Positions 20,676-58,410 of a stretch of DNA of 64,000 nt are shown piece after piece (within the stretch, counting starts at the first letter, position 1; each line of letters starts with the position of its first letter). This DNA is from a virus, in IMG/VR virus record IMGVR_UViG_3300009129_001089. The stretch is one strand, 5' to 3'. The notes beneath the pieces were generated by a model that was not told the origin of the DNA, searched no databases, and was given only the letters and a program-made list of their open reading frames with translations. The position numbers and the translations under genes are program-made.

Positions 20676-20678
20676 AAT

Positions 20679-41640: not shown

Positions 41641-42433
41641 TCATAAACTCATCTAATATATCTTTTAAATAAACATCTAATAATATTTTCTGTCCTTTTT
41701 CGTTATGGTGATAATTATCCATTACTGTTATATCATCAAGTTCATAATTACGAGTGATATATTTACTAAATGATTGGTCTTTATAACATTTAAAGGCAGA
41801 TAACCTTTTTAGTTTTTCTAATGATAAACAGGTATCTGCTATACCTCCTTCGTTTTCTAGCCAACCATAAGGAAATATTAAAAATTTTGAATTTAAAGAA
41901 TCTATGTAACTTAAAATATGATCAATTTCTTTAACTGCAAAGTTTGATCTGGCATAATTTACTACACCAAATAACGGATCTCGTTTTGTTTTATCGTCTT
42001 CTTTGATCAAATTAAATCTTGTTTTAAGTTGCCATAAATTTATAAAATCTGGTAAATGTCCTTGACCCGAGTTTGACAAAATATCGTAATAGAAAAAATT
42101 CTCTTTGCTTTCTCGAATACCAAAAGTATATTCTTTATATAATACTTGTCTTGGTTCGCTTGATGATAATGATATTATAATTTTATCAAAAAAATCTAAT
42201 CCGTATTTGCTCTGTATTTCATCAATAAAAAATCTAGTTCCGTTTAAACCATCACCACCATGACAAAAAACATGTGTCTCAACATTATATTTTTTATGTA
42301 ATTCGTATGGCCATCCTTTAAAATGATCTATATTATAATCGTCTACAAATGTATCTATTGCTATTTGTTTTTTAGCAGGAATAGGATTATATTCGCCGGC
42401 TACAAAACTGCAACCTATTATTGCTATTCTCAT
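41633..42433 (-). CDS. SGNH-like protein
   Basis: GCSF, GW, DNYH; paralog-like to 22228..22884. Confidence 0.5.
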   Translation of the reverse strand: MRIAIIGCSFVAGEYNPIPAKKQIAIDTFVDDYNIDHFKGWPYELHKKYNVETHVFCHGGDGLNGTRFFIDEIQSKYGLDFFDKIIISLSSSEPRQVLYKEYTFGIRESKENFFYYDILSNSGQGHLPDFINLWQLKTRFNLIKEDDKTKRDPLFGVVNYARSNFAVKEIDHILSYIDSLNSKFLIFPYGWLENEGGIADTCLSLEKLKRLSAFKCYKDQSFSKYITRNYELDDITVMDNYHHNEKGQKILLDVYLKDILDEFMNE

Positions 42434-42996
42434 TTTATAAGTTGTTTAATTACATACGGATACATAAAATGTTCGACATAAGTGTGTATCATTTTTTTTA
42501 CTTCATCTAATGGCATATCTTGTAATTGCATTGCTCGTTGCTCAATTATTGCTCCGCCATCTACTTCTGATGTTACCCAATGTACAGTAGCACCAAATAC
42601 TGTACAACCATAATTGTATGCGTCTTCGATTGCATTTGTTGATCCTTTAAATGCGGGAAGCAAAGACGGGTGTATGTTAATTATTTTACCTGCCCATTTA
42701 TCACAAAACCAATGGGATAAAATTCGCATCCAGCCAGCAAGTACAATTAAATCAGGCTTAAACTTATCTGGTCCGGTACCCCCAAGTGCAAAGTCTATCT
42801 TTTTATCGTACTCTTCTCGTGTTTCCCCTTTATAATGTTTAATTAAACAAGAACTTACCCCAGCATCCTTTGCTCGGTTAATTACTCCTGCATTAGGATT
42901 ATTTGTAATTACTTGATCTACTTCTATATCATTATTAACAATGGCACTAAAATTTGAGCCTTCTCCAGAAGCCATTACTATTATTTTTTTACTCAT
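42430..42996 (-). CDS. purN: Phosphoribosylglycinamide formyltransferase
   Basis: SGEGSN, LAGWMRIL, INIHPSLLP, GATVHWV..VDGG. Confidence 0.95.
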   Translation of the reverse strand: MSKKIIVMASGEGSNFSAIVNNDIEVDQVITNNPNAGVINRAKDAGVSSCLIKHYKGETREEYDKKIDFALGGTGPDKFKPDLIVLAGWMRILSHWFCDKWAGKIINIHPSLLPAFKGSTNAIEDAYNYGCTVFGATVHWVTSEVDGGAIIEQRAMQLQDMPLDEVKKMIHTYVEHFMYPYVIKQLIK

Positions 42997-43022
42997 AACT
43001 TTCGTATAATTCTTCTACTTGA

Positions 43023-44348
43023 TCAGGCAAATCCCCGCAACTCGTAAGAAGTGCAAGGAGTACTAAAAACTTTATGAAATATGTAATCCACATTCTTTGT
43101 ATAATATCCTACATTAAAAATATCGTTTACTTCGTCCATAGATAAAACGTTATTTGCTATTAAATTATCTTTAAATGCGCCATCACCATGGGCGGCAGTT
43201 TGTACTTCTTTATACGCTTGTTCTCTTGTTAAGCCCTTATTATTAATTAAAAAGAGAAGAACTTGTTGAGAATAAACTAAACCGCCAGTAATATTCAGAT
43301 TTTCTTGCATTCGCTTTGTATTTACTTCCATATTTATAACAACTTTTGTAAGCCGTGTTAATGCAAATGATACATAAGAAAATGTATCAGGTAAAGTAAT
43401 ACGTTCGACACTTGAATGGCTAATATCTCTTTCGTGCCATAATGCTATATTATCTAATGATGGTGCGACTGCACTTTTTATAAGTCTTGCAAGTCCTGTT
43501 AAGTTTTCTGTTAATATAGGATTCTTTTTGTGTGGCATTGCACTAGAACCTTTTTGTCCTTTAGTAAATTGTTCTATTACTTCGCCTACTTCAGTACGTT
43601 GTAAATGTCTTATTTCAACTGCTAAGTTTTCTATACAGCCACCTATAATTCCTAAGTAACTCATTAATAACGCAAAACGATCTCGCGGAACAACTTGCGT
43701 ACTAACATCTTCAGCTAACATGCCAAGTTCGTCTGCTAAGTATTCTTCTATTTTTGGGTCAATAACAGAATAAGTTCCTACTGCTCCACTACATTTTACT
43801 CTACAAATATCATGTTCTGCCTGCTCCAATAACTTTAAGCATCTTTGAAATGCTCTGTAATGCCCTAATAATTTTAATCCAAACGTTGTTGGTTCTGCGT
43901 GTATACCATGCGATCTACCTACACATACTGTATTTTTATGATCTTCTGCTCGTTGTTCTAATACACTTACAATGCTTTTTAAAGCATCTTCTATAACAAT
44001 TAATGATTGTTTTATTTGCAAGGCATTGCAAGTGTCTAATAAATCTTGACTTGTCATGCCCATGTGTATATACTTTGCATTAGGACCTATCATATTAGAA
44101 CAATGGGTTAAAAACGCTAATACATCATGTTTAGTTGTCTTTTCTATTTCATTTATTTTTTCAACAAAATTTCCACTTTCAACACAAAGCCATCTGCATT
44201 TGCGTATATCGTTTACTGCTTCTTTAGGAATGTTTCCATATTTTGCTTGTGCTTCACAAACAATTTCCTCAATATCAAACCAATGTTGAAATCTACTTTC
44301 GTCTGACCAAATATTTTCTATATCAGGGCATGTATATCTTTTATGCAT
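43023..44348 (-). CDS. purB: Adenylosuccinate lyase
   Basis: KHDV, GRSHGIHAEP, GSSAMPHKKNP, WHERDISHS. Confidence 0.96.
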   Translation of the reverse strand: MHKRYTCPDIENIWSDESRFQHWFDIEEIVCEAQAKYGNIPKEAVNDIRKCRWLCVESGNFVEKINEIEKTTKHDVLAFLTHCSNMIGPNAKYIHMGMTSQDLLDTCNALQIKQSLIVIEDALKSIVSVLEQRAEDHKNTVCVGRSHGIHAEPTTFGLKLLGHYRAFQRCLKLLEQAEHDICRVKCSGAVGTYSVIDPKIEEYLADELGMLAEDVSTQVVPRDRFALLMSYLGIIGGCIENLAVEIRHLQRTEVGEVIEQFTKGQKGSSAMPHKKNPILTENLTGLARLIKSAVAPSLDNIALWHERDISHSSVERITLPDTFSYVSFALTRLTKVVINMEVNTKRMQENLNITGGLVYSQQVLLFLINNKGLTREQAYKEVQTAAHGDGAFKDNLIANNVLSMDEVNDIFNVGYYTKNVDYIFHKVFSTPCTSYELRGFA

Positions 44349-44952
44349 TAAAGTCTTCTAGTATTTTGAATCCGTCTTGTGAGCAATGATAAGTTTCAAA
44401 TGCTCGTTCCGGATGTGGCATCATACCTAATACATTATTATTACGTATTCCACAAATGCCCATTGTGGAACCATTTGGATTGTTTTTACGCAAATAATAT
44501 GAATATGCTACTTTTTGTTCTTCTACTAACTTTGCAGGGTTAGGGTGATAGTAATTACCTTCTGCATGAGCAATAGGTATTCTACGTTGATAGTGTACAG
44601 GCCAAGTAATTATATCCATTGGCTTACATATAAATTTTTCTGTACTGTTTATTCGTAACGTTCCTGGTAACAAACCTGCTTCACATAATATTTGAAATCC
44701 GTTGCAAATGCCTAGTATTTTTCTATCTGTTTTTTTAAGTTCTTTTATAACAGGACTAAGATTTGCTATTGCACCTGCACGTAAATAATCACCATAACTA
44801 AAGCCTCCTGGTATTACATACATATCAACTTTTGGTAATGTTGTTTCTTTGTGCCAGACACGTATAGGTTTAATTCCTGTATGTGCATACAAGAATCTTT
44901 CCATTTCATTATCGCAGTTACTACCTGGAAATATTATAATCGCTGTTTTCAT
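44341..44952 (-). CDS. purQ: FGAM synthase glutaminase subunit
   Basis: [31 protein letters not shown]. Confidence 0.96.
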
Positions 44953-46492
44953 AATTTTCTATTAATCCTACTCCACCTATTACTGGTGTTGGCATAATGC
45001 CTTTACCTAAAGTTTCGTTATAAAAACTTACATTACCACTAACAACCGGAAATTCTAATTCTTTACATATTTCTGCCATGCCTAAACATACTTCTTTAAA
45101 GTCATGCATAACATTTGGATTTTCCGGATTACCAAAATTTAAACAATTTGTTATACCTAACGGTTTTGCATTTACAGATAATAACTTATTATAACAATCA
45201 TATATAATATATCTAATCCCACTTCTAGGATTATAATGGCAAAATGGGGCACTACTCATAGTTGTCATTGCTATTGCTTTTTTACTATTTGGTATCCTAA
45301 CAATAGCAGGATCTGCTTGTGGTCCTTGTATTGTATTCCCTATTACTTGCGAATCATATTGCTCCCATACCCAATTCATATCAAAATCTGTTACTATAGG
45401 TATATCTATAAATTCTGATTTATAAGGCTCTACTGGTCGTTGTAATTCAGGTGCATCTAATGCTTCTAGTGGTACATCACATACTACTTTATCTTTAACA
45501 CGAACAGTATAATTATTTGTATCTGTTAGTGTTCCTATTTCGACATAATCTAAATCCCATTTATTAAATATACTTTCTACTTCTGCATCAGGATTTAAAA
45601 CAAATAACATTCGTTCTTGGCTTTCGCTTAAAAGTATCTCCCAAGGTTCCATTTTTTCTTCTCTTAAAGGAATTTTTGATATATCAATATCAATACCATA
45701 ATTTCCTTTAAGTGCTACTTCCGAAGTTGAAGAAAGTATACCTGCCGCACCCATATCCTGTGCCGCAATTACTGTGCCTGTTTCAAATAATTCTAATGAT
45801 GCTTCTAGTAATAGTTTTTCTTGAAATGGATCGCCTACTTGTACTGTAGGGCGTTTAACCTCACATTCAGTAAATTCCTCGCTTGCCATAATAGCACCAC
45901 CTATACCATCACGCCCTGTTTTAGCACCTACATAAACAACAATGCCTTTTTTATTTGGAATACTTGTAAATATTTCTTTATTAGTATAACCTACTGTCAT
46001 AGCATTTACAAGAGGATTTTCAGCATAACAATCAAAAAAATGGCATTTGCTACTAACAGTAGGAACCCCGACACAATTCCCATAATCAGCAATCCCTTTA
46101 ACCACTCCATCAATAACTCTCCTATCGTCTGTTGAACCAAAATGTAACGAATTTAAATTTGCAATAGGTCGAGCCCCCATTGTAAAAACATCACGCATGA
46201 TGCCGCCTACTCCTGTTGCGGCTCCTTGATAAGGTTCTATATAACTAGGATGATTATGACTCTCTATTTTAAAAACTAGTTTATCACCGTCACCTATATT
46301 GACTACACCTGCATTTTCACCAGGGCCAGATATGACTTGCTTGCCTTCAGTGTATAATTGTTTTAGCCAAAATTTAGAACTTTTATAAGAGCAATGTTCA
46401 CTCCACATTGCATCAAATACATGAGTTTCGGTTACGTTAGGTGCCCGACCTAATCTTTCGTCTATTAATTTTATTTCGTCATTCGTTAACAT
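44921..46492 (-). CDS. purL: FGAM synthase subunit PurL (short, 523 aa)
   Basis: [45 protein letters not shown]. Confidence 0.93.
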
Positions 46493-47135
46493 GTTTTTCC
46501 CAATTTACATAACTTAATTGTCTATCATTACCTAATTCTTTAGCAAATGTATTAAACGCCAAAGTGTATCTAATATCATTTTGCTGATTAATATTAACAG
46601 AATGCATTATATCTGATGGAAACATAATTAAGTCTCCATTGGTCATTGGTGCATCTACATATTCTGCATTCATACTATTATGGGTAGACTGTTGTAATTG
46701 AATCATAGGTAGATGCCTATTATAAAATTGCGTAGGAGGCATTGAGCTGGTTACATTTAAATAAAATATTCCACTAATAATACTATTTTGATGATGGTGC
46801 GTCGGATGGCCTGCCCCGGACTCATTTTTATTAACCCAAGAATTTGTAATAATCAATTCTGTTTTGGTAGAAATAACATCTATTGCATAATTTTTTATTT
46901 TTTCTTCAATCCAATTTTTAATTTTAGATAATTTTTTATGCCGTAATATGTACGAATCTTCTGTTTTACAATTTCCGTTATATGATCCTTCTTGTCTAAA
47001 TGGTAACTTTTGTATGTATTCAAATTCTTCATCATATGTATCAGGATATTTACTTACAAACATTGTAGTTGGAAAAACATGCAATATTGTATCATCGCCC
47101 TTAACAAATTTTGTTACATGATCTAATACATTCAT
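46479..47135 (-). CDS. 2OG-Fe(II) oxygenase (TIGR02466-like)
   Basis: SWVN, HHH.NS..SG..Y, FPS..MHSV, R.TLAFN. Confidence 0.88.
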
Positions 47136-47350
47136 TCTTCCTCTATTTCATAATCATACAATAAGGTATTAACAAGAACTGTTTCGCATAATTCTTTAAT
47201 TTTATGATGAGGGGCATTAAAATAAAATACTTGTCCTACTTTCATATTTTCTACTTGCCATCCATTAGCATTTACGTTTAATGATATATTATCGCCTTGT
47301 ATATCTTTAATACCTTTTCTTAATTTTGTTGTGATTTTGTATTTTTTCAT
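47132..47350 (-). CDS. purS: FGAM synthase subunit PurS
   Basis: L..GI.D.QG, LVN.L...Y.I; size and operon context. Confidence 0.75.
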   Translation of the reverse strand: MKKYKITTKLRKGIKDIQGDNISLNVNANGWQVENMKVGQVFYFNAPHHKIKELCETVLVNTLLYDYEIEEE

Positions 47351-47351
47351 A

Positions 47352-47948
47352 TTAATAAATTTGTTCTATCTTATCGCATAATCCTAATTTTTTTGCTTCT
47401 TTAGCACCAAGCCAAACATCATGTGCAGGAAGTAAGTATTTTCTAATATCTGATTCTTTAAGACCAGTACATTTTTTATAATGATTGATCATACGCTCTG
47501 TTGTTAGTTCTAACTCTTTAACTCTAGCAAATAGTTCGTGTTCTTTTCCTATACTGCCCCATGAATATTGGTGCGATAAAATACTTGTGTTTGGTGTTAG
47601 AACTCGTCTACCTTTTGCACCAGTTATAAACATAAGTAATCCACACGAGGCAATCATGCCTAGTCCAACTGTTTTGATAGGAATTTTAGATCCTTTCATT
47701 ACATCTACTAATGCAAAACATGCATTAAGATCTCCGCCTCTAGAACATATACCTAATGTCAATTCTTTTTGCTTTTTTGGTTTATAATTTTCTGCAAGTA
47801 TCCAGTCAATTAACGGACTCATTGATTCTACTGTAACATCACCCATAAAAACCACTACACCATTCATTAATAGTTCCATTTTAGGAACCATTGCTTCAGG
47901 ACTTGACGGTCCTTGGGGAACTCCTTGATCTTCGTCTTCGTTTCTCAT
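47352..47948 (-). CDS. clpP: ClpP-like protease
   Basis: CSRGG, IASCG (catalytic Ser), SHQ, D.WL.A.EA...GL.D. Confidence 0.88.
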   Translation of the reverse strand: MRNEDEDQGVPQGPSSPEAMVPKMELLMNGVVVFMGDVTVESMSPLIDWILAENYKPKKQKELTLGICSRGGDLNACFALVDVMKGSKIPIKTVGLGMIASCGLLMFITGAKGRRVLTPNTSILSHQYSWGSIGKEHELFARVKELELTTERMINHYKKCTGLKESDIRKYLLPAHDVWLGAKEAKKLGLCDKIEQIY

Positions 47949-47957
47949 TTTATTCCT

Positions 47958-49001
47958 TTAAAATATTTTATTTTGTTGATTGTTTACCATTACAAAGGTT
48001 GTACATTTTGGAATATCTTTTATTCTTCTTGCACCAATCATTGTACATGCACTTCTAAGTCCGCCTAAAATATTTTTTACTGTATCTCTAACAGGCCCTC
48101 TTGAATCCATTGTAACTCGTTTACCTTCTGTACTAGTATAGCCATCTTTTCGAGATCCATGCACTTCTTTTGCACGATCAGAACTCATGCCGTAAAATTC
48201 ATATTTTCCATCTTGTTTTGGTAAATCGCATTCATCATGAAATGCCAGCATACCTCCTAACATAACAAAGTCTGCTCCCGCTCCAAATGCTTTTGTTATA
48301 TCACCCGGAACAGTACATCCACCATCTGCAATTATATATCCCCCCAAACCATGTGCGGCATCTGCACATTCCATTACTCCACTTATTTGTGGCATACCTA
48401 CTCCGGTTTGCTCTCGTGTTGTACATACACTACCTGGACCTATACCACATTTAACCACATCTGCACCCGATATACATAATTGCTCGGTCATTTCTCCAGT
48501 AATAACATTACCTGCAATTATAATTTTATCAGGAAAATCATCTCGTACTTTAACAACAAAATCTGCAAAATTTTGCTGATAACCATTTGCTACATCTATA
48601 CAAATAAATTTAACTTCTGGCCATTCTGTTAATACTGCTTTTGCAGTAGCATAATCTGTTGCGTTGTCGTCCCAAATAGCATTGGTACCTGTACTAACTA
48701 CTACATTATTTAAACGTAATCCTTTACTTGCCGCTTCTTTCCAGTCATCAAATGAATAATGCTTTCTAATTGTAGTAAGCATATTAAACTCTTGCAGTAC
48801 CATTGCCATCGAAAATGTACCTACCCCATCCATGTTTGATGACATAATAGGAGTACCTGCCCATTTTTGGGAAGATTCGTCCCAATGCCTAAACGTAAAC
48901 TCTCTTTCTAAGTTTATACTTCGTCTACTAGATATTGTAGAACGTTTAGGTTGTAATAATACATCTGAATAATCTAATTTTATTTCAGTGTCTACTCTCA
49001 T
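47958..49001 (-). CDS. guaC: GMP reductase
   Basis: SNMDGVGTF, DVANGY, GIGPGSVCTTR, FYGMSS, GGLRSACT. Confidence 0.93.
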   Translation of the reverse strand: MRVDTEIKLDYSDVLLQPKRSTISSRRSINLEREFTFRHWDESSQKWAGTPIMSSNMDGVGTFSMAMVLQEFNMLTTIRKHYSFDDWKEAASKGLRLNNVVVSTGTNAIWDDNATDYATAKAVLTEWPEVKFICIDVANGYQQNFADFVVKVRDDFPDKIIIAGNVITGEMTEQLCISGADVVKCGIGPGSVCTTREQTGVGMPQISGVMECADAAHGLGGYIIADGGCTVPGDITKAFGAGADFVMLGGMLAFHDECDLPKQDGKYEFYGMSSDRAKEVHGSRKDGYTSTEGKRVTMDSRGPVRDTVKNILGGLRSACTMIGARRIKDIPKCTTFVMVNNQQNKIF

Positions 49002-49420
49002 TATGCACCATATGGCTGTTCAAAGTTTATTATGTCTAGGATACGTTTTGCGTATAATGCGGCATTAATTGCACCATGCTTGCCAACTGACATACATGCA
49101 ACTGGTACACCTTTTGGCATTTGTACTATACTTAGTAAACTATCAATACCCATTAAATCACTTTTCATTGGTACACCTATTACTGGTAAATTTGTTTGGG
49201 ATGCAACCACACCTGGCAATGCGGCAGACATTCCTGCGGCCGCAATAATAATTTTATATCCGGATGCTTCCCATTTTTTAATATACTCGGTTACTTTTTC
49301 TGGATTTCTATGTGCAGATGCAGTAACTATTTCATTGCCGATATTTAATTCGTTTAATTTATCAACGCAATTATTCATCGTCTCTAGGTCGCTGTCGCTT
49401 CCCACTATTATTCCTATCAT
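49001..49420 (-). CDS. purE: PurE (N5-CAIR mutase/AIR carboxylase)
   Basis: GSDSD, SAHR, PVIGVP, SIVQMPKGVPV. Confidence 0.95.
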   Translation of the reverse strand: MIGIIVGSDSDLETMNNCVDKLNELNIGNEIVTASAHRNPEKVTEYIKKWEASGYKIIIAAAGMSAALPGVVASQTNLPVIGVPMKSDLMGIDSLLSIVQMPKGVPVACMSVGKHGAINAALYAKRILDIINFEQPYGA

Positions 49421-49589
49421 TTTTCTCCTTAGTTTGAAATTCTTCTAATATTTCAAGTAATCGTTTATATTGTTTAGATGTTAATTTTCTTAACTGTCCA
49501 ATACTTGCTCCATCAAACCCCATTTTATAAAGTTCATCATGTCCAATACCTGCTATCAAGGTAAGCCTCGTTCTTTTGCTTGAAACCAT
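49371..49589 (-). CDS. Hypothetical protein (start uncertain)
   Basis: ORF filling the gap in the operon. Confidence 0.4.
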   Translation of the reverse strand: MVSSKRTRLTLIAGIGHDELYKMGFDGASIGQLRKLTSKQYKRLLEILEEFQTKEKNDRNNSGKRQRPRDDE

Positions 49590-49915
49590 GATTCTGAATT
49601 ATATGATTTATCACAAATGTACATATCAAAATGTGGTTTATTTCCTACTTGTACATCATGGTATTTACATCCCCATTCTAGTAATTGACTTTTGGTTAAT
49701 TCTGTATGGTCTAATCCAGAATGGATACCACGGGCAGTCCAATAAACAATTTTATGACCTTCATCGTATAATTCGTTTATATGCTTAATTCTTTCTGGTT
49801 TCGGAGTTGCTTTTGTATAATCCATAGGTTGGTCATCAAAATTTGGCAACTCTGGATTATCACAAATAGTACCATCTACGTCAACGTAGATAATTTTATG
49901 TTTTTTTAATTTCAT
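49556..49915 (-). CDS. Minimal HAD-superfamily phosphatase
   Basis: DVDGT, WTAR, KP..D.YICD. Confidence 0.85.
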   Translation of the reverse strand: MKLKKHKIIYVDVDGTICDNPELPNFDDQPMDYTKATPKPERIKHINELYDEGHKIVYWTARGIHSGLDHTELTKSQLLEWGCKYHDVQVGNKPHFDMYICDKSYNSESWFQAKERGLP

Positions 49916-49922
49916 TTTTCCT

Positions 49923-50531
49923 TTAATATTCTGCAACAAAAATGTGATACTTTATAATGGTATATATAAATCCTATAAAAAAGATCCCCATACCAATTTC
50001 ATGTAATTTTTTACTATTACTGAATATCATTGGAGTCATAATGCAAAGCATAAGAACTCTACCTATTACTTTCAATGACATTAATTCTCCTTTAAAGAAT
50101 ACAAAGAGATTTGCAAGTAGACAACATTGTAATGCTACTGCCAATCCTAAAATAACCTTATGGTTTTCGTAATAGTATTCACATAAATCAACCGATTTAT
50201 CTTTATATGTCTCCGGTTGTGGAGCAACTACTTCAGTTACCATAAAAAATATTAATGGTACTGAAAGATATAAAAGAAACGTAAATAAATTCCAATCTTC
50301 ATTTGAAAAATATGCTAAGTCTCTTAGTGGATACGAAGTCCACCAAAATAATATAATAGTAAAAAAAGTTATAAAACTAAAAGCCGTATGTGGCCAATAG
50401 AAATAAACATCATCGTCTGGATTATCATTGTAATTTTTTGCTAATAATGAACTGTAATTTATCATTAACCTAACCATAGACATGGCTAAAACTACAAAGG
50501 GTATCATAGATAAATGTGAAAATGCGACCAT
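49923..50531 (-). CDS. Multi-TM membrane protein
   Basis: About six hydrophobic helices. Confidence 0.75.
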   Translation of the reverse strand: MVAFSHLSMIPFVVLAMSMVRLMINYSSLLAKNYNDNPDDDVYFYWPHTAFSFITFFTIILFWWTSYPLRDLAYFSNEDWNLFTFLLYLSVPLIFFMVTEVVAPQPETYKDKSVDLCEYYYENHKVILGLAVALQCCLLANLFVFFKGELMSLKVIGRVLMLCIMTPMIFSNSKKLHEIGMGIFFIGFIYTIIKYHIFVAEY

Positions 50532-51470
50532 TCATTTTTCCTCCAACTCGCCTAAAATAAGATGTTCAGTTAATACATTACTTAAATACTGCCATTCACT
50601 ATCTTCTGGAACAATTATAACCATTCCTACACCGCAATTAAATGTTTTCATCATTTGTTTTTTAGTTAAGTTTGCCTCTGCTTGTATCCATTGAAACAAA
50701 CTTTCGTGTCTAAAAAATCTAGTCTCATTTGATTTATTGCCACTTTTTACAGAATGATATAATCTATAATTACATACTAAGTTCTTTGGTAATATTCTTT
50801 TTGTATTAGTATGACCACCTCCTGTTATATGTGCTATTCCTTTTATTTCTATACCTGCTTCTTTAAGTGCATCCAATTCTTTTTTATATATTTTTGTTGG
50901 CTCAAGCAACGAATACATAAATTCTTTTTCGTCTACGTTATTCGGAGTTTTATGTGCATATTCTCGTATCATTGTGTAACCATTAGAGTGAAATCCTGTA
51001 GAAGGCAAACCTATTACTTTATCTCCTGGTTGCATATTATTTTTAGGCAATTGATCCATTGATATACCTACACCAAATCCGCAAACATCAAATGTACCTT
51101 GTTCAATTATGCCAGGCAACTCAGCAGTCTCGCCTCCTACTAATTCTATTCCTACTTGAGAACATCCAAAATATATTCCTTCTAATACTTCTTTAAAATC
51201 TTCCTCGTTAACATTTGCTGAACAAAAATAATCCAAAAAGAACAACGGTTCACATCCATTACATAATAAATCATTAATAACCATTGCTACACAATCTACT
51301 CCTATTGATTGCAACGGCCTACCATATTTTTCCTTTGCTTGTTGTGCTAATAGTATCTTTGTTCCAACACCGTCACAACTTGAAATAAGATTGCCATGCC
51401 TAGCCGCAAAGCCTCCTATCTGTTCTGAATATTGTGAAATACTTTTAACTAGTTTATCATTTTTATTCAT
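50532..51470 (-). CDS. purM: AIR synthetase
   Basis: DGVGTK, PLFFLDY, GGETAE, HSNGY, HITGGG, FNCGVG. Confidence 0.95.
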   Translation of the reverse strand: MNKNDKLVKSISQYSEQIGGFAARHGNLISSCDGVGTKILLAQQAKEKYGRPLQSIGVDCVAMVINDLLCNGCEPLFFLDYFCSANVNEEDFKEVLEGIYFGCSQVGIELVGGETAELPGIIEQGTFDVCGFGVGISMDQLPKNNMQPGDKVIGLPSTGFHSNGYTMIREYAHKTPNNVDEKEFMYSLLEPTKIYKKELDALKEAGIEIKGIAHITGGGHTNTKRILPKNLVCNYRLYHSVKSGNKSNETRFFRHESLFQWIQAEANLTKKQMMKTFNCGVGMVIIVPEDSEWQYLSNVLTEHLILGELEEK

Positions 51471-51477
51471 TATTACC

Positions 51478-53025
51478 TTATTCCCATTCTATTGTTCCTG
51501 GTGGCTTAGAAGTTATGTCGTAAACTACTCTATTTACTCCTGATACATTATTAATAATTTCAGTAGAACATTTACTAAGCACTTCATGTGGTAAATTAAA
51601 CCAATCAGCAGTCATACCATCTTCACTTGAGACTGCTCGTAATGCAATAAGATTTTCGTATGTTCTATCATCGCCCATTACACCTACTGTTTTAATAGGT
51701 ATCAAAACTGCAAATGCTTGCCAAATACCTTCGATATCACCTAACGTCTTTAAAAATACACTATCTGCCTCACGTAATATTCGTAATCTTTCATGTGTTA
51801 CTTCGCCCATTATTCGTACTGCTAGTCCTGGTCCGGGAAATGGCTGGCGGGTTAAAACAGTATCTGGCAACCCTAATTCTTTGCCCAATAATCTTACTTC
51901 ATCTTTAAATAAATTCCTAAGTGGTTCAATTAAAGTAAATTCCATATTGTCGGGTAATCCACCTACATTATGGTGCGACTTAATTGTTGCCGCTATATCT
52001 TTTCCTGATTCAATAACATCAGGATACAATGTACCTTGTGCTAAAAACTTTGCATCCTTTGTAACATCTTCAAAGCATCTAATAAATTCTCTTCCAATTA
52101 CTTTTCGTTTAACTTCCGGATCAGTAATGTTTTCTAATACTTTCCAAAACCTTTGTGTAAAATCATACTTTGTAATGTTTAATCCTAGCTCTTGCATGGA
52201 TTTCATTATTTCGTTTGCTTCGTTTTTACGAAGTAACCCTGTATCAATAAAAACACATTTTGACTGTTTACCTATTGCTTTGTGTAATAATTTTCCTACT
52301 ACTGCGGAATCAACTCCTCCACTAATTGCAGTTATAACTTCTCCATCACCTACTTGTTCTCTTATAGATTTAATAGCATCTTCAATAATATATTTTGAAA
52401 TCCAATCTTTATCACATTGTGCTACTTTAAATAAAAAGTTTCTAAATACATCTCTTCCAATAAGTGAATGTACTACTTCCGGATGAAATTGTACTCCGTA
52501 AATAGGTTTTTCTTTATGCTTAACCGCCGCTATAACATTGTTAGAAGATCTTGCTATAATATCAAATACTTTTGGTAATGTTTGTATTTCATCTGCATGA
52601 CTCATCCATACTTGGGCTCCTTCTATCCAATCTTTGTCACATTCTGCTAATAATGGATCTGGCTTTTCTACGTATATGTTTGCAAGTCCGTATTCGCCTG
52701 TGCCACGAATAATTTTTCCGCCTTCTTTGTGTACTATTTCTTGTAAGCCATAACATATACCTAAAATAGGAATACCTAAGTTTAAAATATCAGGATCTAA
52801 CTTAGGTGCTTCGGTTTCGTATACACCTGATCTGCTTCCTGATAATATTATTGCTTTAGCATTTTTTAATTCTTCTGCTTTAACAGACGGAGCATATATT
52901 TTGGAATAAACATTTTGTTCTCTAACTCTCCTGGCAATGAGTTGTGTATATTGGGCACCAAAATCTATTACTGCTACAGGATTATGTGTGTACTTTGCTC
53001 CAAAATCTATTACCGCGACTGTCAT
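51478..53025 (-). CDS. guaA: GMP synthase (glutamine-hydrolysing)
   Basis: GICYG, QFHPEV, SGGVDS, KSHHNVGGLP, KPPGTIEWE. Confidence 0.97.
   Translation of the reverse strand: MTVAVIDFGAKYTHNPVAVIDFGAQYTQLIARRVREQNVYSKIYAPSVKAEELKNAKAIILSGSRSGVYETEAPKLDPDILNLGIPILGICYGLQEIVHKEGGKIIRGTGEYGLANIYVEKPDPLLAECDKDWIEGAQVWMSHADEIQTLPKVFDIIARSSNNVIAAVKHKEKPIYGVQFHPEVVHSLIGRDVFRNFLFKVAQCDKDWISKYIIEDAIKSIREQVGDGEVITAISGGVDSAVVGKLLHKAIGKQSKCVFIDTGLLRKNEANEIMKSMQELGLNITKYDFTQRFWKVLENITDPEVKRKVIGREFIRCFEDVTKDAKFLAQGTLYPDVIESGKDIAATIKSHHNVGGLPDNMEFTLIEPLRNLFKDEVRLLGKELGLPDTVLTRQPFPGPGLAVRIMGEVTHERLRILREADSVFLKTLGDIEGIWQAFAVLIPIKTVGVMGDDRTYENLIALRAVSSEDGMTADWFNLPHEVLSKCSTEIINNVSGVNRVVYDITSKPPGTIEWE
52944..53020. 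repeat. 42-bp-period tandem duplication at the guaA 5' end
   Basis: VAVIDFGAKYT HNP VAVIDFGAQYT. Confidence 0.85.
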
Positions 53026-54191
53026 AATGCTTTATATCCAATATCCTTTCGATAAAAACTATCTTCCCAATGTATTTTTTCACATATTTGATATGCTTTA
53101 TTTCGTGCTTCTTGTAATGTTTCTCCTCTAGCAGTTATATTTAAAACTCTACCACCTTTTGTAATATATCTATCATCTATTTTTTGAGTACCTGCATGAA
53201 ACACTTGTACATCAGGATCATCTATTTTATCTAAACCTTTTATTTCAAATCCCTTACCATATTTTTCTGGATAACCTCCTGAACACATACAAACAGTTAT
53301 CGCAGATCCATTGTAAAAATTAGGTGCCGGTAACTCTTTTAATGTACCATTAACACATGCTTCTAAATATGGAGACAAATCACTCTCCATTAACATCATT
53401 AATACTTGACATTCAGGATCACCAAAACGTACATTGTATTCTATTACATATGGATCTCCATTGCAAATCATTAAACCAATATATAATACACCTCTGTAAG
53501 GGATACCTTCTTCTCGCATTCCCCTAAGTGTTGGTTCGATTATTTCTCTTCTAATTCTTGTGTCTAGTTCATTTGTTATTAATGGTGCTGGTGCGTATGC
53601 ACCCATTCCTCCTGTGTTAGGTCCAGTATCTCTTTCACCTACACGTTTATGATCTTGACAATAAGGAAGTACTTTATAATCTTTTCCATCTGTTAATACA
53701 AAACAACTTGCTTCGTCGCCTTGTATAAATTCTTCTATTAATATTTTATTTGATTTAGACTCAAATTTATTATCAATAAATGTTTGTTGAACATTAATAG
53801 CATCCTCTAATGCATCACAAACTGATACACCTTTTCCTCCGCATAATCCGTCCTCTTTAATAACAATAGGAAATTTTTCATTAGGACGCATTATTGCTTC
53901 TTCTATTGTTGATCGATTATATGTTTCCCATCTTGCAGTAGGAATATCATTACGAAGCATAAATTGTTTCGCCCATAATTTACTTGTTTCTAATCGACCC
54001 GCAAGTTTACTTGGAGCAAATACTTTTTTAAGCATACCTTCATAATGCTCAGTAAGTCCGTCTGCTATAGGTTGTTCTGGTCCTATAATAACAAATTCCG
54101 AATTTTCTTTAATCGGAATGCTTTCTTTTTCCAATTTCCAACGTAAGGAATCTTCTCTTCCTCCGTCGCCTATCATAATAGTCGAAATCAT
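53022..54191 (-). CDS. purD: GAR synthetase
   Basis: GGRE, IGPE, GKGV, QDHKR..DTGPNTGGMG, EYNVRFGDPE. Confidence 0.96.
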   Translation of the reverse strand: MISTIMIGDGGREDSLRWKLEKESIPIKENSEFVIIGPEQPIADGLTEHYEGMLKKVFAPSKLAGRLETSKLWAKQFMLRNDIPTARWETYNRSTIEEAIMRPNEKFPIVIKEDGLCGGKGVSVCDALEDAINVQQTFIDNKFESKSNKILIEEFIQGDEASCFVLTDGKDYKVLPYCQDHKRVGERDTGPNTGGMGAYAPAPLITNELDTRIRREIIEPTLRGMREEGIPYRGVLYIGLMICNGDPYVIEYNVRFGDPECQVLMMLMESDLSPYLEACVNGTLKELPAPNFYNGSAITVCMCSGGYPEKYGKGFEIKGLDKIDDPDVQVFHAGTQKIDDRYITKGGRVLNITARGETLQEARNKAYQICEKIHWEDSFYRKDIGYKAL

Positions 54192-55696
54192 GCTACCTGT
54201 TGTTTATATCTGAGTGTGCCTTCTTGTGTAGGATATTTAGATGTTAAACATGCCATACAAAGTTCACTACTATTTTTATTTAACGCTTTTACCATACCCT
54301 CTAACGACAAATATTGTAAACTATCTGCACCAAAATCGCTTGCTTTAGGTTTATTAGTACTTGTGTATAATTCTTTTATAGTTGGAAAATCTATTCCATA
54401 AAAACAAGGCGAAGTAATAGGAGGACATCCAATTCGTAAATGTACTTCTTTTGCTCCGCTCCATTCTTTTAAATTTGTTACTAATGCTCGCATTGTTGTA
54501 CCACGTACAATAGAATCATCTATAAGTATAATTTTTTTACCCCGTAATACCTCACGCAAATGTGTAAATTTTAATTGTATATTGTATGTTCTATTTGTAT
54601 TATCTATAAATGTTCTTCCTATAGAATGATTTTTAAGTAAGCCTTGTACAAAAGGTATATGGGTTTCTTGTGCATATTTTGCTCCTGCAACATACGAAGT
54701 TTCAGGTACAGGTACTACAATATAATCACCGTTAAATTTAACTGTTTCTTCTATTGCTAATTGTTTTCCTATATTTTCTCGTACATGATATACAGATTCG
54801 CCATCCATTACAGATGCAAGATGCCCAAAATAAATCCATTCAAAAAAACAATAACTAGTATTTTTTTTAGAATGTGTTTCTATTAATTTACTTGGACCAG
54901 AATAATATAAACTATTACTTGGATATTGTAAATCCTTATCTATATAACTTTTTACAGTAAAATTATCGCCATCAGCAATAATCATTTCACCGGGTTTCAA
55001 ATCTGTTGCTTCTATTTGTAAATTAGAGAGAACTACGCTTTCTGATGTAAAAACTAATATGCCATCATCAGTAACACCATAACACATAGGTTTTAGCCCT
55101 AGTGGATCTCTGACAGCAACCATTTTCCCGTCAGCATTTACAAAGGCAATGTTCCATGATCCGTCAAAATCTTTTAATAACGTTTTAAATATTTCAACAA
55201 AGTTTAATTCTTCTTGAGGCTTATGTGATTGGACTTCACGACTAAGAAAATGCATTATGACTTCTGTATCAGAATCATAAGTCATATTGTAACCTACTTT
55301 TTCTAAGCCACTTTTTAGTTTATCATAATTTGCTAGGTTGCCATTAAAGGCTAAACTAAACCATTTTGATTTTCTACCATGTGGACGTTCAAATGGTTGT
55401 GCTAATTGATCTCCATTATCACCACTTGTTGCATAACGAGTGTGACCTATTGCGGCATGACCACTATAATCTTCTAATAATTTTTTACTTTTATATTGAT
55501 GGTTGATTTGAAATACTTCGTGTACTTTACCATTGTCTTTATGTGTTTGGAGTATTCTCTTTCTATTTTGATTGTAAGAAGTAAGACCGGCACTAAGTTG
55601 ACCCCGGTGTTGTAAATCTAATAATCCTCTAACAATGAGGGGGTAAACGTTTTTGGTTTTATCCTTTAACGAATACGCCCCAATAACTCCACACAT
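54188..55696 (-). CDS. purF: Amidophosphoribosyltransferase
   Basis: MCG N-terminus, LQHRGQ, GHTRYAT, DDSIVRGTT, CFYGID, C..C. Confidence 0.96.
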   Translation of the reverse strand: MCGVIGAYSLKDKTKNVYPLIVRGLLDLQHRGQLSAGLTSYNQNRKRILQTHKDNGKVHEVFQINHQYKSKKLLEDYSGHAAIGHTRYATSGDNGDQLAQPFERPHGRKSKWFSLAFNGNLANYDKLKSGLEKVGYNMTYDSDTEVIMHFLSREVQSHKPQEELNFVEIFKTLLKDFDGSWNIAFVNADGKMVAVRDPLGLKPMCYGVTDDGILVFTSESVVLSNLQIEATDLKPGEMIIADGDNFTVKSYIDKDLQYPSNSLYYSGPSKLIETHSKKNTSYCFFEWIYFGHLASVMDGESVYHVRENIGKQLAIEETVKFNGDYIVVPVPETSYVAGAKYAQETHIPFVQGLLKNHSIGRTFIDNTNRTYNIQLKFTHLREVLRGKKIILIDDSIVRGTTMRALVTNLKEWSGAKEVHLRIGCPPITSPCFYGIDFPTIKELYTSTNKPKASDFGADSLQYLSLEGMVKALNKNSSELCMACLTSKYPTQEGTLRYKQQVA

Positions 55697-56929
55697 TTAA
55701 AATTGCTCGTCTTCTGTTGACCCTTTAATTGCACTTAATGTATTACTACCAGTACATACTTGACTTATTTCGTCAAAGTAACCTGCACCTACTTCACGTT
55801 GGTGTTTTACTGCTGTAAATCCTAATTCTTGTGCTTTAAATTCTTTTTGTTGTAAATCTACAAATCCTGTCATACCAGTATTTTTATAATTTAAAGATAA
55901 ATCAAACATACTATAATTTAAACTATGAAAACCTGCGAGTGTAATAAACTGATATGTTACTCCTAGTTCGCCTAGTTCATCTTTGAAATTGCGTATTTCA
56001 GTATCGCTTAATTTTGACTTCCAATTAAATGATGGTGAACAATTATATGCAAACATTTTATTTGGAAACTCCTTACGAATTTCTGCACAAAATTCCCTGC
56101 ATTCGCCTATGTCGGGTAAAGATGTTTCCATCCAAAGCAAATCACAGTAAGGCGCATATGCAAGTCCTCTTGAAACCGCTTGTGCCATTCCTGCATTTGT
56201 TTTATAAAATCCTTCGGTTGTTCTTTCACCTGTAATAAACGTATGATCATATTCGTCAGCATCAGTTACTAACAATGCACCTGCTAATGAATCTGTTCTT
56301 GCAATTAAAACAGTATCAACGCCCATTATATCTGCGGCAAGTCTAGAAGCAATAAGTTTTGATACCATTTCTTTAGTAGGTACTAACACTTTACCACCCA
56401 TGTGTCCGCATTTTTTAGCAGAAGATAATTGGTCTTCTAAATGCACACCGGCGGCACCGGCTTCAATCATGTCTTTCATTAATTCATGGGCATTAAGGAC
56501 TCCTCCGAATCCTGATTCCATGTCTGCAACAATAGGAAGAAAATAATCTATATCTCCTTCACCTTCCATTGTTTGTATTTGATCTGCACGGATAAACGTA
56601 TTATTAATTCGTTTTACTACGATTGGTACACTATTGGCCGCATATAATGATTGATCTGGATACATCTCCATACTATCATTTGCATCGCCTGCTACTTGCC
56701 AACCACTAAGATATACCGAATCTAACCCAGCCTTTGCTTGTTGCATTGCTTGGTTACCTGTTAATGCACCTAAGGCACTAACGTAAGGTTGATTGTGTAA
56801 TTTGTGCCATAACTTTTTAGCACCATTTTGTGCTAATGTATATTCAACTTTAACTGACCCACTTAGTCGCTTTACGTCTGAGTCGGCATATGGTCGGATA
56901 ATCCCGTCCCATCTATTTTCTTTGCTCAA
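55697..56929 (-). CDS. aceA: Isocitrate lyase
   Basis: [47 protein letters not shown]; TTG start with AGGAG SD. Confidence 0.97.
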
Positions 56930-56940
56930 TTTTTATCTCC

Positions 56941-57783
56941 TTAAAATTTGCTTGTATACTCTGTCACGATAGCATACTTTCGTTGAACATCAGTTAAATT
57001 TTCTCCGTCTCTAAATGATTGTTTATCTAATTGTTGTTTTGGATCGCCATGTGGCCATATACGCCAACTATCATTATCTATAACGTCTGCAATAACAATT
57101 TCTTTATTTGAATTAATACCTACTTCTATTTTCATATCTATTAAATCTACATTAACTTTTTTCCATGCTTTTTCTATTGTTTCAAAACATGGTATCATTA
57201 ATGAATTTCTAATATATTCTAATGTTACAGGATCTACTACAGGTATTATGTCCATTAATGGTTGCATATCATGTCGTGGTTGCTTAGGAGGATAAAGTAA
57301 CCACGTTTCATCATGTGGTTCTATTAAAGGGTCTGTGTATACAGTTTCTGTCCATTCTCCGTTTCGTAGGTATAATTCTCGAGCTTTATCTTCAGAAATC
57401 ATTTCACCTTTAACTATTGCATGTTTATGAAAAAATTCAGTTTTTACAGGATCAAATAAATCTGAAGAGGATGCTTGAGGTTCTCGTTTAATATAACTAC
57501 CATATGGCCTTCTACGTATAACACATTCAATAGGAATCATTCTACATTTATCTGCAACAAATGATGTTTCGTCATTTCTGCTTTTATATGCAACTGGTAT
57601 TCCTTCACGTTTCAGTAACGCAAATACATGAATTGTCTGGCTTGTTTTATCTTGTGCTACAGGTAGGTCTGCTTGTATTGCGGCATCATTTGCCGTAAGT
57701 GAATCTTTTGTTCGTATTCTAACTAAACTTTTATCATCTAAGGATTCTATTAGTTTAGTTTTACCTTCAATTAGTATTTCCAT
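56941..57783 (-). CDS. purC: SAICAR synthetase
   Basis: EGKTK, MIPIECVIRR..GS, D.KIE.G, ADVIDNDSWRIW, DKQ.FR. Confidence 0.92.
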   Translation of the reverse strand: MEILIEGKTKLIESLDDKSLVRIRTKDSLTANDAAIQADLPVAQDKTSQTIHVFALLKREGIPVAYKSRNDETSFVADKCRMIPIECVIRRRPYGSYIKREPQASSSDLFDPVKTEFFHKHAIVKGEMISEDKARELYLRNGEWTETVYTDPLIEPHDETWLLYPPKQPRHDMQPLMDIIPVVDPVTLEYIRNSLMIPCFETIEKAWKKVNVDLIDMKIEVGINSNKEIVIADVIDNDSWRIWPHGDPKQQLDKQSFRDGENLTDVQRKYAIVTEYTSKF

Positions 57784-57990: not shown

Positions 57991-58410
57991 CTAAATAAAT
58001 TTCGGATCACCGTAGTCGACAAGACCTGACCAATGTGCTTTTGTCGAAAATGTAGGTTTTAATTCATGTTCTCTATCCATTAACGTATATGCAACTTTTT
58101 CAGGTTCCATTATGTTTAGGTGTTGCAAAACGTCATGTTTACTAAACTCTGCACAACTATATACATCAAATTGTACTAATGCTGGATCTGTTTCATCCCA
58201 TATGTGAATAGCAATATGTGATGTTTCAATCATTACAAATCCTGTAATTCCTCTATTTCCACATACATCAATGTAACTAGCGAAAGGCCCTTTGATAATT
58301 TTCATATCAATTAATTTAACTAGTTGTTTAAGCCATTTCTTTAATACTTTTTCTTCTTTAATTGGTTTAGTAACTTCAGCTCGAACCAATAAATGTTTGT
58401 GTACCGGCAT
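57991..58410 (-). CDS. speD: S-adenosylmethionine decarboxylase proenzyme
   Basis: HLL, G.TG...IETSHIAIH.W, DVYSC. Confidence 0.88.
   Translation of the reverse strand: MPVHKHLLVRAEVTKPIKEEKVLKKWLKQLVKLIDMKIIKGPFASYIDVCGNRGITGFVMIETSHIAIHIWDETDPALVQFDVYSCAEFSKHDVLQHLNIMEPEKVAYTLMDREHELKPTFSTKAHWSGLVDYGDPKFI

Follow-up and report, generated by a model that had tools for sequence, protein, structure and literature searches.

The contig described here is part of an uncultured marine jumbo phage with a genome of about 300 kb. It carries 11 pur genes that account for nine of the 11 bacterial de novo purine steps, mostly in one array, together with guaA, guaC, rpiB, and an isocitrate lyase gene (aceA). 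The metabolic cluster is a real phage feature and is host-dependent for two steps. The stretch analyzed (the window) comprises 64,000 nucleotides of a 109,853-bp record (IMGVR_UViG_3300009129_001089).

Organization of the Purine Gene Cluster

ORF calls and Pfam/NCBIfam profiles bear out the twelve pur and gua genes that an earlier note, made from the sequence alone, had placed at 42430–57783; all are on the minus strand and overlap or abut, the widest gap being 26 bp. From high to low coordinates the region contains purC, aceA, purF, purD, guaA, purM, purE, guaC, clpP, purS, purL, purQ, purB, and purN, so that the earlier gene list, correct in what it named, had missed the isocitrate lyase between purC and purF and a ClpP-family protease between guaC and purS. 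PurN, PurB, PurL, GuaC, PurE, and PurM exceed curated NCBIfam cut-offs; PurF, PurD, GuaA, PurQ, and PurS were identified by Pfam matches above gathering scores.

All coordinates that follow are on the minus strand. A divergent SAICAR synthetase of 280 aa is encoded by purC (56941–57783); it scores 125.6 bits to Pfam SAICAR_synt (cut-off 20), falls below the TIGR00081 cut-off (74 vs 190), and is 71%–77% identical to its relatives, with dN/dS of 0.18–0.20. The isocitrate lyase (55697–56929; 410 aa; NF011645, 689.9 bits > 562) has KKCGH and SGWQ motifs. The amidophosphoribosyltransferase PurF (54188–55696; 502 aa) matches Pfam GATase_6/7 and Pribosyltran and retains an N-terminal Met-Cys and the DDSIVRGTT motif. 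GAR synthetase (purD, 53022–54191; 389 aa) matches GARS_A (226 bits) and GARS_C (114 bits), and its shortened N domain matches GARS_N at profile positions 60–100 only. GMP synthase (guaA, 51478–53025; 515 aa) has GATase and GMP_synt_C domains with GICYGLQ, SGGVDS, and HPE motifs, and AIR synthetase (purM, 50532–51470; 312 aa) exceeds the TIGR00878 cut-off (254.6 bits > 236.35) and carries DGVGTK.

The purM–purE interval holds three small ORFs. The first encodes a conserved multi-pass membrane protein (49923–50531; 202 aa) that has no match in Pfam, NCBIfam, or PDB; its closest Atlas clusters are mostly viral, and its position is kept in a related contig (L116). The second is a putative small capless HAD-like protein (49556–49939; 127 aa) with a weak match to HAD_PNKP (22.9 bits, under the cut-off) and a DVDGT motif; a homologue 63% identical lies near purM in another relative (G001). 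The third, a 72-aa ORF (49371–49589), matches no protein family; other assemblies have an ORF call at the equivalent place.

Beyond these lie a derived, class I-like purE (49001–49420; 139 aa; TIGR01162, 162.4 bits > 149.6) and the GMP reductase gene guaC (47958–49001; 347 aa; NF003470, 481.4 bits > 397; GIGPGSVCTT motif), followed by the ClpP-family protease (47352–47948; 198 aa; Pfam CLP_protease, 98.8 bits) and purS (47132–47350; 72 aa; Pfam PurS, 37.5 bits > 22.2). A 2OG-Fe(II) oxygenase (46479–47135; 218 aa; 2OG-FeII_Oxy_5, 73.8 bits) separates purS from a short-form purL (44921–46492; 523 aa; NF002290, 730 bits > 648) that is without the C-terminal subdomain; both the protease and the oxygenase keep their positions in L116. 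The array ends with the glutaminase subunit gene purQ (44341–44952; 203 aa; GATase_5, 98.2 bits; GICNGFQ and HPE motifs), the adenylosuccinate lyase gene purB (43023–44348; 441 aa; TIGR00928, 440.3 bits > 326.2; SSAMPHKKNP motif), and purN, for a folate-dependent GAR transformylase (42430–42996; 188 aa; TIGR00639, 165.2 bits > 150.1; NIHPSLLP motif).

A second locus at about 20–21.6 kb holds purH and rpiB, as had been noticed before. The purH product (20679–21623; 314 aa; NF005492 [PRK07106], 441 bits > 415) is the AICAR formyltransferase half only; it matches the bifunctional PurH profile at positions 207–511 only and has the KH and SDAFFPF motifs. Ribose-5-phosphate isomerase B is encoded by rpiB (19981–20424; 147 aa; LacAB_rpiB, 189.1 bits).

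Bacterial pur operons, such as purEKBCSQLFMNHD of B. subtilis, consist of tightly packed, overlapping genes and encode a three-subunit PurS/Q/L FGAM synthetase. The phage cluster shares their enzyme families, this synthetase, and the packing. It differs in having no purK, IMP cyclohydrolase half of purH, or purine riboswitch; in a gene order that is fluid among relatives; in the shortening of PurL and PurE; and in the interleaving of aceA, clpP, an oxygenase, and a membrane protein.

Phage Origin and Recurrence

In its replication and virion genes the phage is similar to the jumbo phages Atu_ph07, Phosso, and PA5oct and to Rak2-like jumbo phages. PolB is 43%–47% identical to PolB of jumbo phages of 350–490 kb, a virion structural protein shares about 40% identity with PA5oct and Phosso proteins, and both have similar counterparts in Atu_ph07, Phosso, and PA5oct. 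The clamp loader (gp44-type), the tRNA array (nine tRNAs), and the interspersed 2OG-Fe(II) oxygenases cited earlier as viral context are all present; the T4 late motif TATAAATA, cited with them, proved depleted, not enriched (4 found vs 18.7 expected). The 109,853-bp record yielded no terminase or major capsid gene; in one relative (G002) a large terminase is on the same contig as the pur genes.

A cellular origin could take two forms. The contig might come from a symbiont with a very small genome, as its tRNAs, peptide deformylase, Clp components, and translation-factor homologue could suggest, and Al-Shayeb et al. (2020, PMC7162821) note a likeness between the gene sets of huge phages and small symbionts; the T4-type PolB, the clamp loader of gp44 type, and the virion structural proteins that it shares with PA5oct and Phosso make this barely conceivable, the window contains no ribosomal RNA match, and CheckV and IMG/VR treat the contig as viral. 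Alternatively, the pur genes might be bacterial, as part of the host sequence flanking an integrated prophage or through a chimeric join in the assembly. They are typical of cellular housekeeping, and IMG/VR labels the record "provirus" (completeness 37%). Against this, phage-family genes lie on both sides of the cluster, including its far side, with long ORFs all on one strand and an even GC content (0.28–0.37); phage-type oxygenases and viral ORFs are interleaved among the pur genes; and an integrase was looked for and not found. PurF and PurL form large marine clades of their own, apart from named bacteria (the closest named cellular PurF is 48%–49% identical), and the short PurL is lineage-specific.

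Assembly evidence bears on the same question. A protein identical to PurF occurs on at least 23 contigs, and among the 23 contigs read the gene order around it is the same in at least six assemblies, the longest of 292,447 bp. Independent assemblies of the cluster from at least six samples, one of them a 292-kb scaffold, make a chimera very unlikely, and bacterial DNA of either kind is a highly improbable source.

The pur gene cluster recurs in a widespread ocean phage lineage; IMG/VR relatives have four to nine pur genes each, in shuffled orders, and prs, purA, purT, and an aspartate aminotransferase gene are present among related phage contigs. Enzymes of precursor supply recur inside these clusters: aceA in some, and aspartate aminotransferase Ic with prs in G002.

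Derived Enzymes and Selection

Several products depart from their cellular counterparts. PurL matches positions 1–547 of the 723 in NF002290, aligns to residues 14–552 of a 725-aa solved PurL, and has lost roughly 170 residues at the C terminus. Against solved class I mutases PurE scores about 130 bits, vs 31–41 bits against class II enzymes; its 70s loop has the sequence AAAGMSAALPG, and neither the second conserved histidine nor the C-terminal helix remains. PurD and PurM are short at the N terminus. The trimmed or altered PurL, PurE, PurD, PurM, and PurC could, judging from their sequences, have reduced or changed activity.

Such truncations, with the low PurC score, might mark decaying or inactive passenger genes that have lost function. 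We regard this as very unlikely, since all cluster ORFs are intact with catalytic motifs, and eight cluster genes have dN/dS of 0.10–0.30, which indicates purifying selection. About 100 related protein clusters share the short PurL length (512–538 aa, down to 56% identity), full-length PurL of 730 aa being seen only at ≤56% identity to the phage protein, and phages with 82% identity in PurE have the variant loop of that enzyme in common.

A structure model of the short PurL with two PurS and PurQ scored 0.90 vs 0.58 for the best of three controls. Of 80 solved complexes, 58 attained that mark, as did 2 of 110 mismatched pairs; the runs share at least 91% of contacts, with partner pLDDT ≥90. 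The model supports binding of the three proteins, and the predictor may have passed by having learned a similar solved complex (3d54).

Missing Steps

The absence of purK, IMP cyclohydrolase, purA, and guaB, first noticed in the window, extends to the whole 109,853-bp record, in which prs and IMP cyclohydrolase of the MGS or PurO type were likewise not found. On present evidence the pathway therefore needs host enzymes for the PurK, IMP cyclohydrolase, IMP-to-AMP, and IMP-to-XMP reactions. The coverage from PRPP to FAICAR proposed earlier holds for most steps, not as a continuous run, as the PurK step is skipped. Phage origin and selection on the genes are well supported; de novo purine synthesis by the phage, as proposed earlier, is an overstatement, since two steps and the branch enzymes are missing from the record.

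Archaea provide a parallel, with stand-alone AICAR formyltransferase domains and pathways without recognizable PurK or IMP cyclohydrolase (Brown et al. 2011, PMC3261824). The phage shares the stand-alone formyltransferase and these absences; those archaea, however, live freely and have the remaining pathway enzymes themselves, whereas a phage host can fill missing steps. The same study reports conversion of AIR to CAIR by E. coli PurE when bicarbonate is high, and rescue of a purK deletion by over-expressed PurE (Brown et al. 2011, PMC3261824).

Comparison with Other Phages

The pur gene set is far larger than in any cultured phage of the collection searched, which upholds its reported rarity there; cultured phages in that collection have single genes (purM, AICARFT-only purH). 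Cyanomyovirus purM occurs in about 165 Synechococcus, Prochlorococcus, and cyanophage records, and purH in P-SSM2 and P-SSM5. Marine cyanomyoviruses, which are T4-like phages, also carry de novo purine genes, their purH being the AICAR formyltransferase half only (about 298 aa), but as single scattered genes about 35%–36% identical to those here; PurF and PurL searches of the phage collection returned no cyanophage record.

Al-Shayeb et al. (2020, PMC7162821) state that genes for making purines and pyrimidines de novo, and for interconverting nucleotides, occur in many huge phages, and entries of that study's supplementary tables include isocitrate lyase, ClpX, and GMP reductase. Its main text, by contrast, describes no single genome with a near-complete pathway, and in the portion of the supplementary text searched, amidophosphoribosyltransferase and adenylosuccinate lyase each occur in few phages. 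Among the papers searched, none describes such a near-complete phage purine cluster.

Phage-borne isocitrate lyase is already known, from 98 huge phages with aceA (bioRxiv 10.1101/2025.02.27.640493) and from an aceBA operon in a 179-kb marine T4-like genome (Nishimura et al. 2017, PMC5332604). In those reports malate synthase accompanies it to form a glyoxylate shunt; here aceA lies by itself in a purine cluster, and in related viral contigs it is found beside purC and guaC.

Role of the Cluster

The likely reading is an auxiliary metabolic gene cluster that raises purine supply, with the host completing the pathway. The tightly packed array is probably co-transcribed and would be expressed during infection, supplying phage-made PurF, PurD, PurN, PurS/L/Q, PurM, PurE, PurC, and PurB, with AICAR formyltransferase from the second locus; all are predicted from sequence to be active enzymes. 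No Rfam riboswitch match was found in the window, known bacterial purine riboswitches included, so PRPP-to-IMP flux would rise under phage control. The PurK and IMP cyclohydrolase steps would fall to the host, as would the branches from IMP to AMP and to XMP. GuaA and GuaC may shift the guanine/adenine balance, RpiB may feed ribose-5-phosphate, and isocitrate lyase may feed precursors, through glyoxylate to glycine or C4 acids to aspartate.

The cluster could instead serve mainly something other than bulk DNA synthesis: guanine/adenine rebalancing (GuaC, GuaA, PurB), GTP for 7-deazaguanine DNA modification, or AICAR/ZTP as a signalling intermediate. The presence of guaC and guaA together without guaB or purA fits such a role, as does a pathway that ends at FAICAR in the 109,853-bp record. 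We consider it unlikely, as eleven genes for nine steps, consecutive but for the PurK gap, exceed the needs of pool rebalancing, and the prs, purA, and purT added by relatives point to bulk synthesis; both purposes can coexist. For an auxiliary cluster that raises purine supply, it can reasonably be inferred that the purpose is to provide purines for a large, AT-rich phage genome.

Gene Content and Pathway Coverage

The window spans positions 24824–88823 of one 109,853-bp IMG/VR virus record. Every long ORF of the window lies on the minus strand, and GC content is even (0.28–0.37). The pur cluster runs on this strand from 57783 down to 42430 and encodes, in order of transcription, PurC, isocitrate lyase (ICL, encoded by aceA), PurF, PurD, GuaA, PurM, a 202-aa membrane protein, a 127-aa HAD-like protein, a 72-aa ORF, PurE, GuaC, ClpP, PurS, a 2OG-Fe(II) oxygenase, PurL, PurQ, PurB, and PurN; neighboring genes overlap or are spaced by at most 26 bp. 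A stand-alone AICAR formyltransferase (AICARFT, one half of purH) and rpiB are located at 19981–21623. Together, the two loci account for nine of the 11 reactions by which bacteria convert PRPP to IMP, along with the conversion of XMP to GMP, that of GMP to IMP, and the supply of ribose-5-phosphate.

Steps 1 to 5 (PurF, PurD, PurN or PurT, PurL/Q/S, and PurM) are represented by family matches with intact motifs, and steps 7 to 10 (PurE, PurC, PurB, and AICARFT) are also present; PurC is divergent and falls under the TIGR00081 cut-off. Catalytic signatures are intact in PurF, PurQ, PurL, PurM, PurN, PurB, PurH, GuaA, GuaC, and ICL. GuaC is a GMP reductase (NF003470, 481 bits > 397; 347 aa) with the GIGPGSVCTT catalytic cysteine loop and no CBS insert. 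The GuaA ORF opens (52930–53025) with about 14 residues repeated in tandem, VAVIDFGAKYTHNP and then VAVIDFGAQYTQ, and the true start may be downstream of the first copy.

The close packing of the genes suggests that the cluster is co-transcribed. Rfam searches of the window returned tRNAs only, with no riboswitch or other family, and a consensus scan found promoter-like sites (75 versus 87 expected) and terminator-like sites (10 versus 7.2 expected) at chance level.

Phage Origin and Lineage

The setting of the cluster is viral. A PolB gene just upstream of the window encodes a protein 43%–47% identical to PolB of the phages Atu_ph07, Phosso, GAP32, and CBB and of a 349-kb Vibrio phage, and a 364-aa protein matches virion structural families and shares about 40% identity with virion proteins from Phosso and from phages like PA5oct. 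Also encoded are a gp44-type clamp loader, a 5′-3′ exonuclease, nine tRNAs, and numerous oxygenases of the kind seen in marine phages, and on the other flank of the cluster lie QueD, Hsp20, a translation-factor homolog, and fragments of polymerase and exonuclease genes that belong to phage families. The clamp loader, tRNAs, and oxygenases that the earlier note had offered as viral context are thus all in place; the late motifs it had added to them are not a feature of this DNA, the T4 late motif TATAAATA being depleted in the window. No integrase was found, and the 109,853-bp record yielded neither terminase nor capsid genes.

Identical PurF and PurL proteins are encoded on a 292,447-bp scaffold (ENA ERZ23498657), which exceeds the 200 kb that delimits jumbo phages. 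Among 23 contigs read, the same gene order surrounds an identical PurF in all six of the assemblies shown, so a chimeric join is very unlikely. The “provirus” label in IMG/VR most likely reflects the cellular look of the pur genes.

Related PurF and PurL proteins form about 70–100 clusters each at 90% identity, drawn from marine metagenomes including Tara Oceans, on contigs of up to 309 kb; among named cellular organisms, the closest PurF is 48%–49% identical. Eight IMG/VR contigs encode PurF at 52%–82% identity, and their pur gene orders differ. One of these relatives (G001, 118 kb) has purF-purB-purE-purD-purS-purL-purQ, then purC and purM, and also prs and pyrF. Another (G002, 105 kb) has prs-purF-purB, aspartate aminotransferase Ic, pyrF, purC, rpiB, purA, and purT, and bears a large terminase gene on the same contig. 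A 157-kb relative keeps the order of this phage with small insertions, and a 303-kb NCBI contig has purS-purL-purQ-purD-purN; NCBI SDBU01000009.1 is an example of the relatives of roughly 300 kb. In G002, the genes for PurA, PurT, PRPP synthetase, aspartate aminotransferase Ic, and PyrF lie near positions 15603–19097 of one stretch (L026) and 10388–16579 of another (L027); judging from N-terminal sequence, a ribulose-phosphate 3-epimerase is probably encoded as well.

Pairwise dN/dS against four relatives is 0.10–0.30 for purF, purC, purD, purE, purN, guaA, and guaC. With cellular-type genes, viral flanks, recurrence, and selection (dN/dS), the locus has the attributes of an auxiliary metabolic gene (AMG) cluster. 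We conclude that it is real, phage-borne, selected, and probably active.

Nearest cellular homologs were considered as a guide to the host. PurF, and PurA of G002, point to SAR324 and Deltaproteobacteria metagenome-assembled genomes (MAGs) at 48%–57% identity, and ICL points to Gamma- and Betaproteobacteria at 61%–67%; because these are inconsistent, no host is named. Three public entries labeled Chloroflexota, Acidimicrobiaceae, and Marine Group I thaumarchaeote (contigs PAAV01000031.1 and PBYV01000043.1 and protein NWJ43929.1) carry the aceA or short purL of this lineage and are probably mis-binned phage contigs; PAAV01000031.1 has 33% GC and a homolog of the phage gene that adjoins PolB. 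Public data thus probably mislabel such contigs as provirus, Chloroflexota, Acidimicrobiaceae, or Thaumarchaeota.

Missing Steps

Two steps from PRPP to IMP are without a recognizable gene. PurK (step 6) is absent from the 109,853-bp record, in which TIGR01161 matches only the ATP-grasp domain of PurD (15 bits). For IMP cyclohydrolase (step 11; the N-terminal MGS domain of PurH, or PurO), there is no match to PF02142 or PF07826 in this record, G001, or G002, and the ORFs adjoining purH have no family or PDB match. PurA, a second IMPDH-family gene (guaB), and PRPP synthetase were likewise not found in the 109,853-bp record. The absence of purK, IMP cyclohydrolase, purA, and guaB that had been noted for the window therefore extends to the whole record, which represents 37% of the genome by CheckV rather than all of its ~292 kb. 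With PurA of G002 as the query, none of the best 120 matches has a longest contig of 292,447 bp, a result that neither shows nor excludes PurA in this phage.

Candidates for the missing enzymes were examined and rejected. Two ORFs, of 202 and 212 aa, were considered for IMP cyclohydrolase, and Pfam, NCBIfam, and the PDB gave no match to either; the former encodes a protein that crosses the membrane several times and whose family is mostly viral, and the latter has a glycosyltransferase-like DxD signature, recognized by eye. The TIGR01161 (purK) match in G002 is really PurT (NF006766, 531 bits > 339).

The earlier note had described a nearly complete de novo purine operon. Its near-pathway scale stands, at nine of 11 steps; with PurK and IMP cyclohydrolase missing, dependence on the host remains for these two on present evidence. 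Published work shows that high bicarbonate or over-expression allows PurE to bypass PurK, and that there are archaea with no PurK or no known IMP cyclohydrolase (PMC3261824).

Derived Forms of PurE and PurL

PurE scores about 130 bits against class I mutases versus 31–41 bits against class II enzymes (Treponema denticola and human). Its 40s loop, ASAHRNP, keeps SAHR with the catalytic histidine, and thus has arginine rather than the lysine (SAHK) of class II PurE (AIR carboxylase). The 70s loop motif of class I PurE is AGGAAHLPG, as is visible in the solved class I sequences of our alignment. In this phage and in a phage relative (L007), the loop instead reads AAAGMSAALPG; AGAGGAAHLPG is retained in L009 and L011, two phage relatives at a greater distance, whose PurE is 162 aa long. 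PurE here is 139 aa and matches positions 1–130 of the 156-position model, and the C-terminal helix is gone, as it is in L007. In the PurE octamer, this helix projects out of the central domain (PMC10484210).

FGAM synthetase is of the small type, with PurS, PurL, and PurQ as three separate subunits; the Cys-His-Glu triad of PurQ and the ATP/FGAR motifs of PurL are present. PurL is only 523 aa long, matches positions 1–547 of the 723-position model, and aligns with residues 14–552 of 725 in one solved PurL (3viu) and 7–502 of 603 in another (2hs0). The C-terminal subdomain is absent, leaving the pseudo-symmetric fold incomplete. Since the roughly 100 closest PurL clusters, down to 56% identity, are uniformly 512–538 aa, this loss is old and maintained; 730-aa forms are seen only at 56% identity or less.

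A structural model of the short PurL with two PurS and PurQ scored 0.90, versus 0.58 for the best of three controls; 58 of 80 solved complexes attained that mark, as did two of 110 mismatched pairs. Contact agreement between runs was at least 91%, partner pLDDT was at least 90, and the predicted interface is confined to the retained parts of PurL. The model supports binding of the short PurL by its partners; because a like complex (3d54) is already solved, the score may reflect mere likeness to it and is not proof.

Isocitrate Lyase and Other Inserted Genes

AceA is assigned as isocitrate lyase (NF011645, 690 bits > 562), with the KKCGH catalytic motif at residue 172. A close homolog is found on 35 IMG/VR contigs, and in at least seven of these it is followed by purC, guaC, or an entire pur block, for example in the order aceA-purC-purS-purL-purQ-purM-purE-guaC within ~7 kb. 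The best “genome” matches are two MAG contigs labeled Chloroflexota and Acidimicrobiaceae, the former of which probably derives from a phage of this same lineage; true bacterial homologs are 61%–67% identical. The lyase may feed precursors to the pathway, through glyoxylate and glycine for PurD or through succinate/malate and aspartate for PurC, and this role is more plausible because G002 has an aspartate aminotransferase in the same setting.

ClpP (47352–47948) is encoded inside the cluster, 30 kb from a ClpC/ClpB-type double AAA+ ATPase of 732 aa that has a peptide deformylase gene directly downstream (14213–16913); neither ClpP nor the ATPase (14213–16411) has a shown link to the purine pathway. 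The deformylase-ATPase pair adjoins aceA in two IMG/VR contigs (L141 and L142). The 202-aa multi-pass membrane protein (49923–50531) directly follows purM here and in L116, a relative that keeps the cluster order; it has no known family, and an 80%-identical copy adjoins aceA in a further contig (L140).

Just upstream of purC (57991–58410) is the gene for a 139-aa S-adenosylmethionine decarboxylase (AdoMet_dc) that has an ETSH cleavage-type motif. After the cluster (39280–41640) come a 321-aa inner-membrane transporter of the SbmA/BacA family (448 bits), then a SET-domain protein and a class I methyltransferase, and the same trio follows the cluster in L116. A radical SAM/SPASM protein adjoins an O-methyltransferase at 10105–11651, suggesting a pair for peptide or cofactor maturation. 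At ~90.8–105 kb of the full record, three tryptophan-halogenase-family genes (287–346 bits; 2773–4407, 8482–10137, and 15371–16948 of stretch L003) occur in a region (including 229–1940) that also has a split carbamoyltransferase, peroxiredoxin, and many 2OG-oxygenase/DUF6445 paralogs, and that looks like a small-molecule or protein-modification island.

Comparison with Known Phages

A collection of 50,697 phage records contains no megablast match to the cluster. Among the cultured phages of the collection searched, purM occurs in about 165 cyanophage records (35% identical to the gene product here), and P-SSM2 and P-SSM5 have an AICARFT-only purH (36% identical). Only one cultured-phage record in the collection searched, that of Microcystis phage MaAM05, has purF and purL together. 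It is a doubtful precedent, for its purL-purF neighborhood looks cellular (sasA, aspS, gatA, and coaE); this part of the record (MW495066.1, 228169–257860), which also contains rnhC and speB/E, may be host DNA.

Many huge phages have been said in general terms to carry genes for de novo purine and pyrimidine synthesis; the tables of that study list scattered single genes (Al-Shayeb et al. 2020; PMC7162821). Phage isocitrate lyase has already been reported (bioRxiv 10.1101/2025.02.27.640493; PMC5332604). GAR synthetase was called new to marine viruses in a 2024 ocean AMG survey, and two jumbo-phage overviews do not mention purine synthesis. A non-exhaustive literature search found no description of a near-complete purine pathway in one phage. 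The cluster extends a known kind of phage gene, the nucleotide AMG, to near-pathway scale and adds two derived enzyme forms.

Implications for Phage Biology

Phage metabolic genes are usually single bottleneck enzymes, whereas here nine steps of one central pathway are encoded together; no cultured phage of the searched collection comes nearly as close to metabolic autonomy. A bolder but unlikely reading is that a cosmopolitan clade of ~300-kb marine jumbo phages has its own streamlined purine pathway, largely independent of the host. PurL would function without its C-terminal subdomain, and the remodeled PurE would make CAIR without PurK, either by direct carboxylation of AIR or by a pull on N5-CAIR formed non-enzymatically. 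An unrecognized protein, encoded within the cluster or next to purH, would perform the ring closure that yields IMP, and glycine, aspartate, and PRPP would be supplied by ICL here and, in relatives, by aspartate aminotransferase and PRPP synthetase. If this were true, a virus would have evolved a natural minimal purine pathway. The short PurL, whose length is conserved, and the variant PurE serve as natural experiments on how much such enzymes can do without.

By simple arithmetic, each 292-kb genome copy takes ~2.9 × 10^5 purine nucleotides, and complete recycling of a host chromosome with an assumed size of 1.3–4 Mb would supply only ~4–14 copies. The cluster proteins recur on hundreds of marine contigs, including those of Tara Oceans, on scaffolds of up to 309 kb; in the sea, the lineage may therefore divert host nitrogen, glycine, aspartate, and one-carbon units to nucleotide synthesis on a measurable scale.
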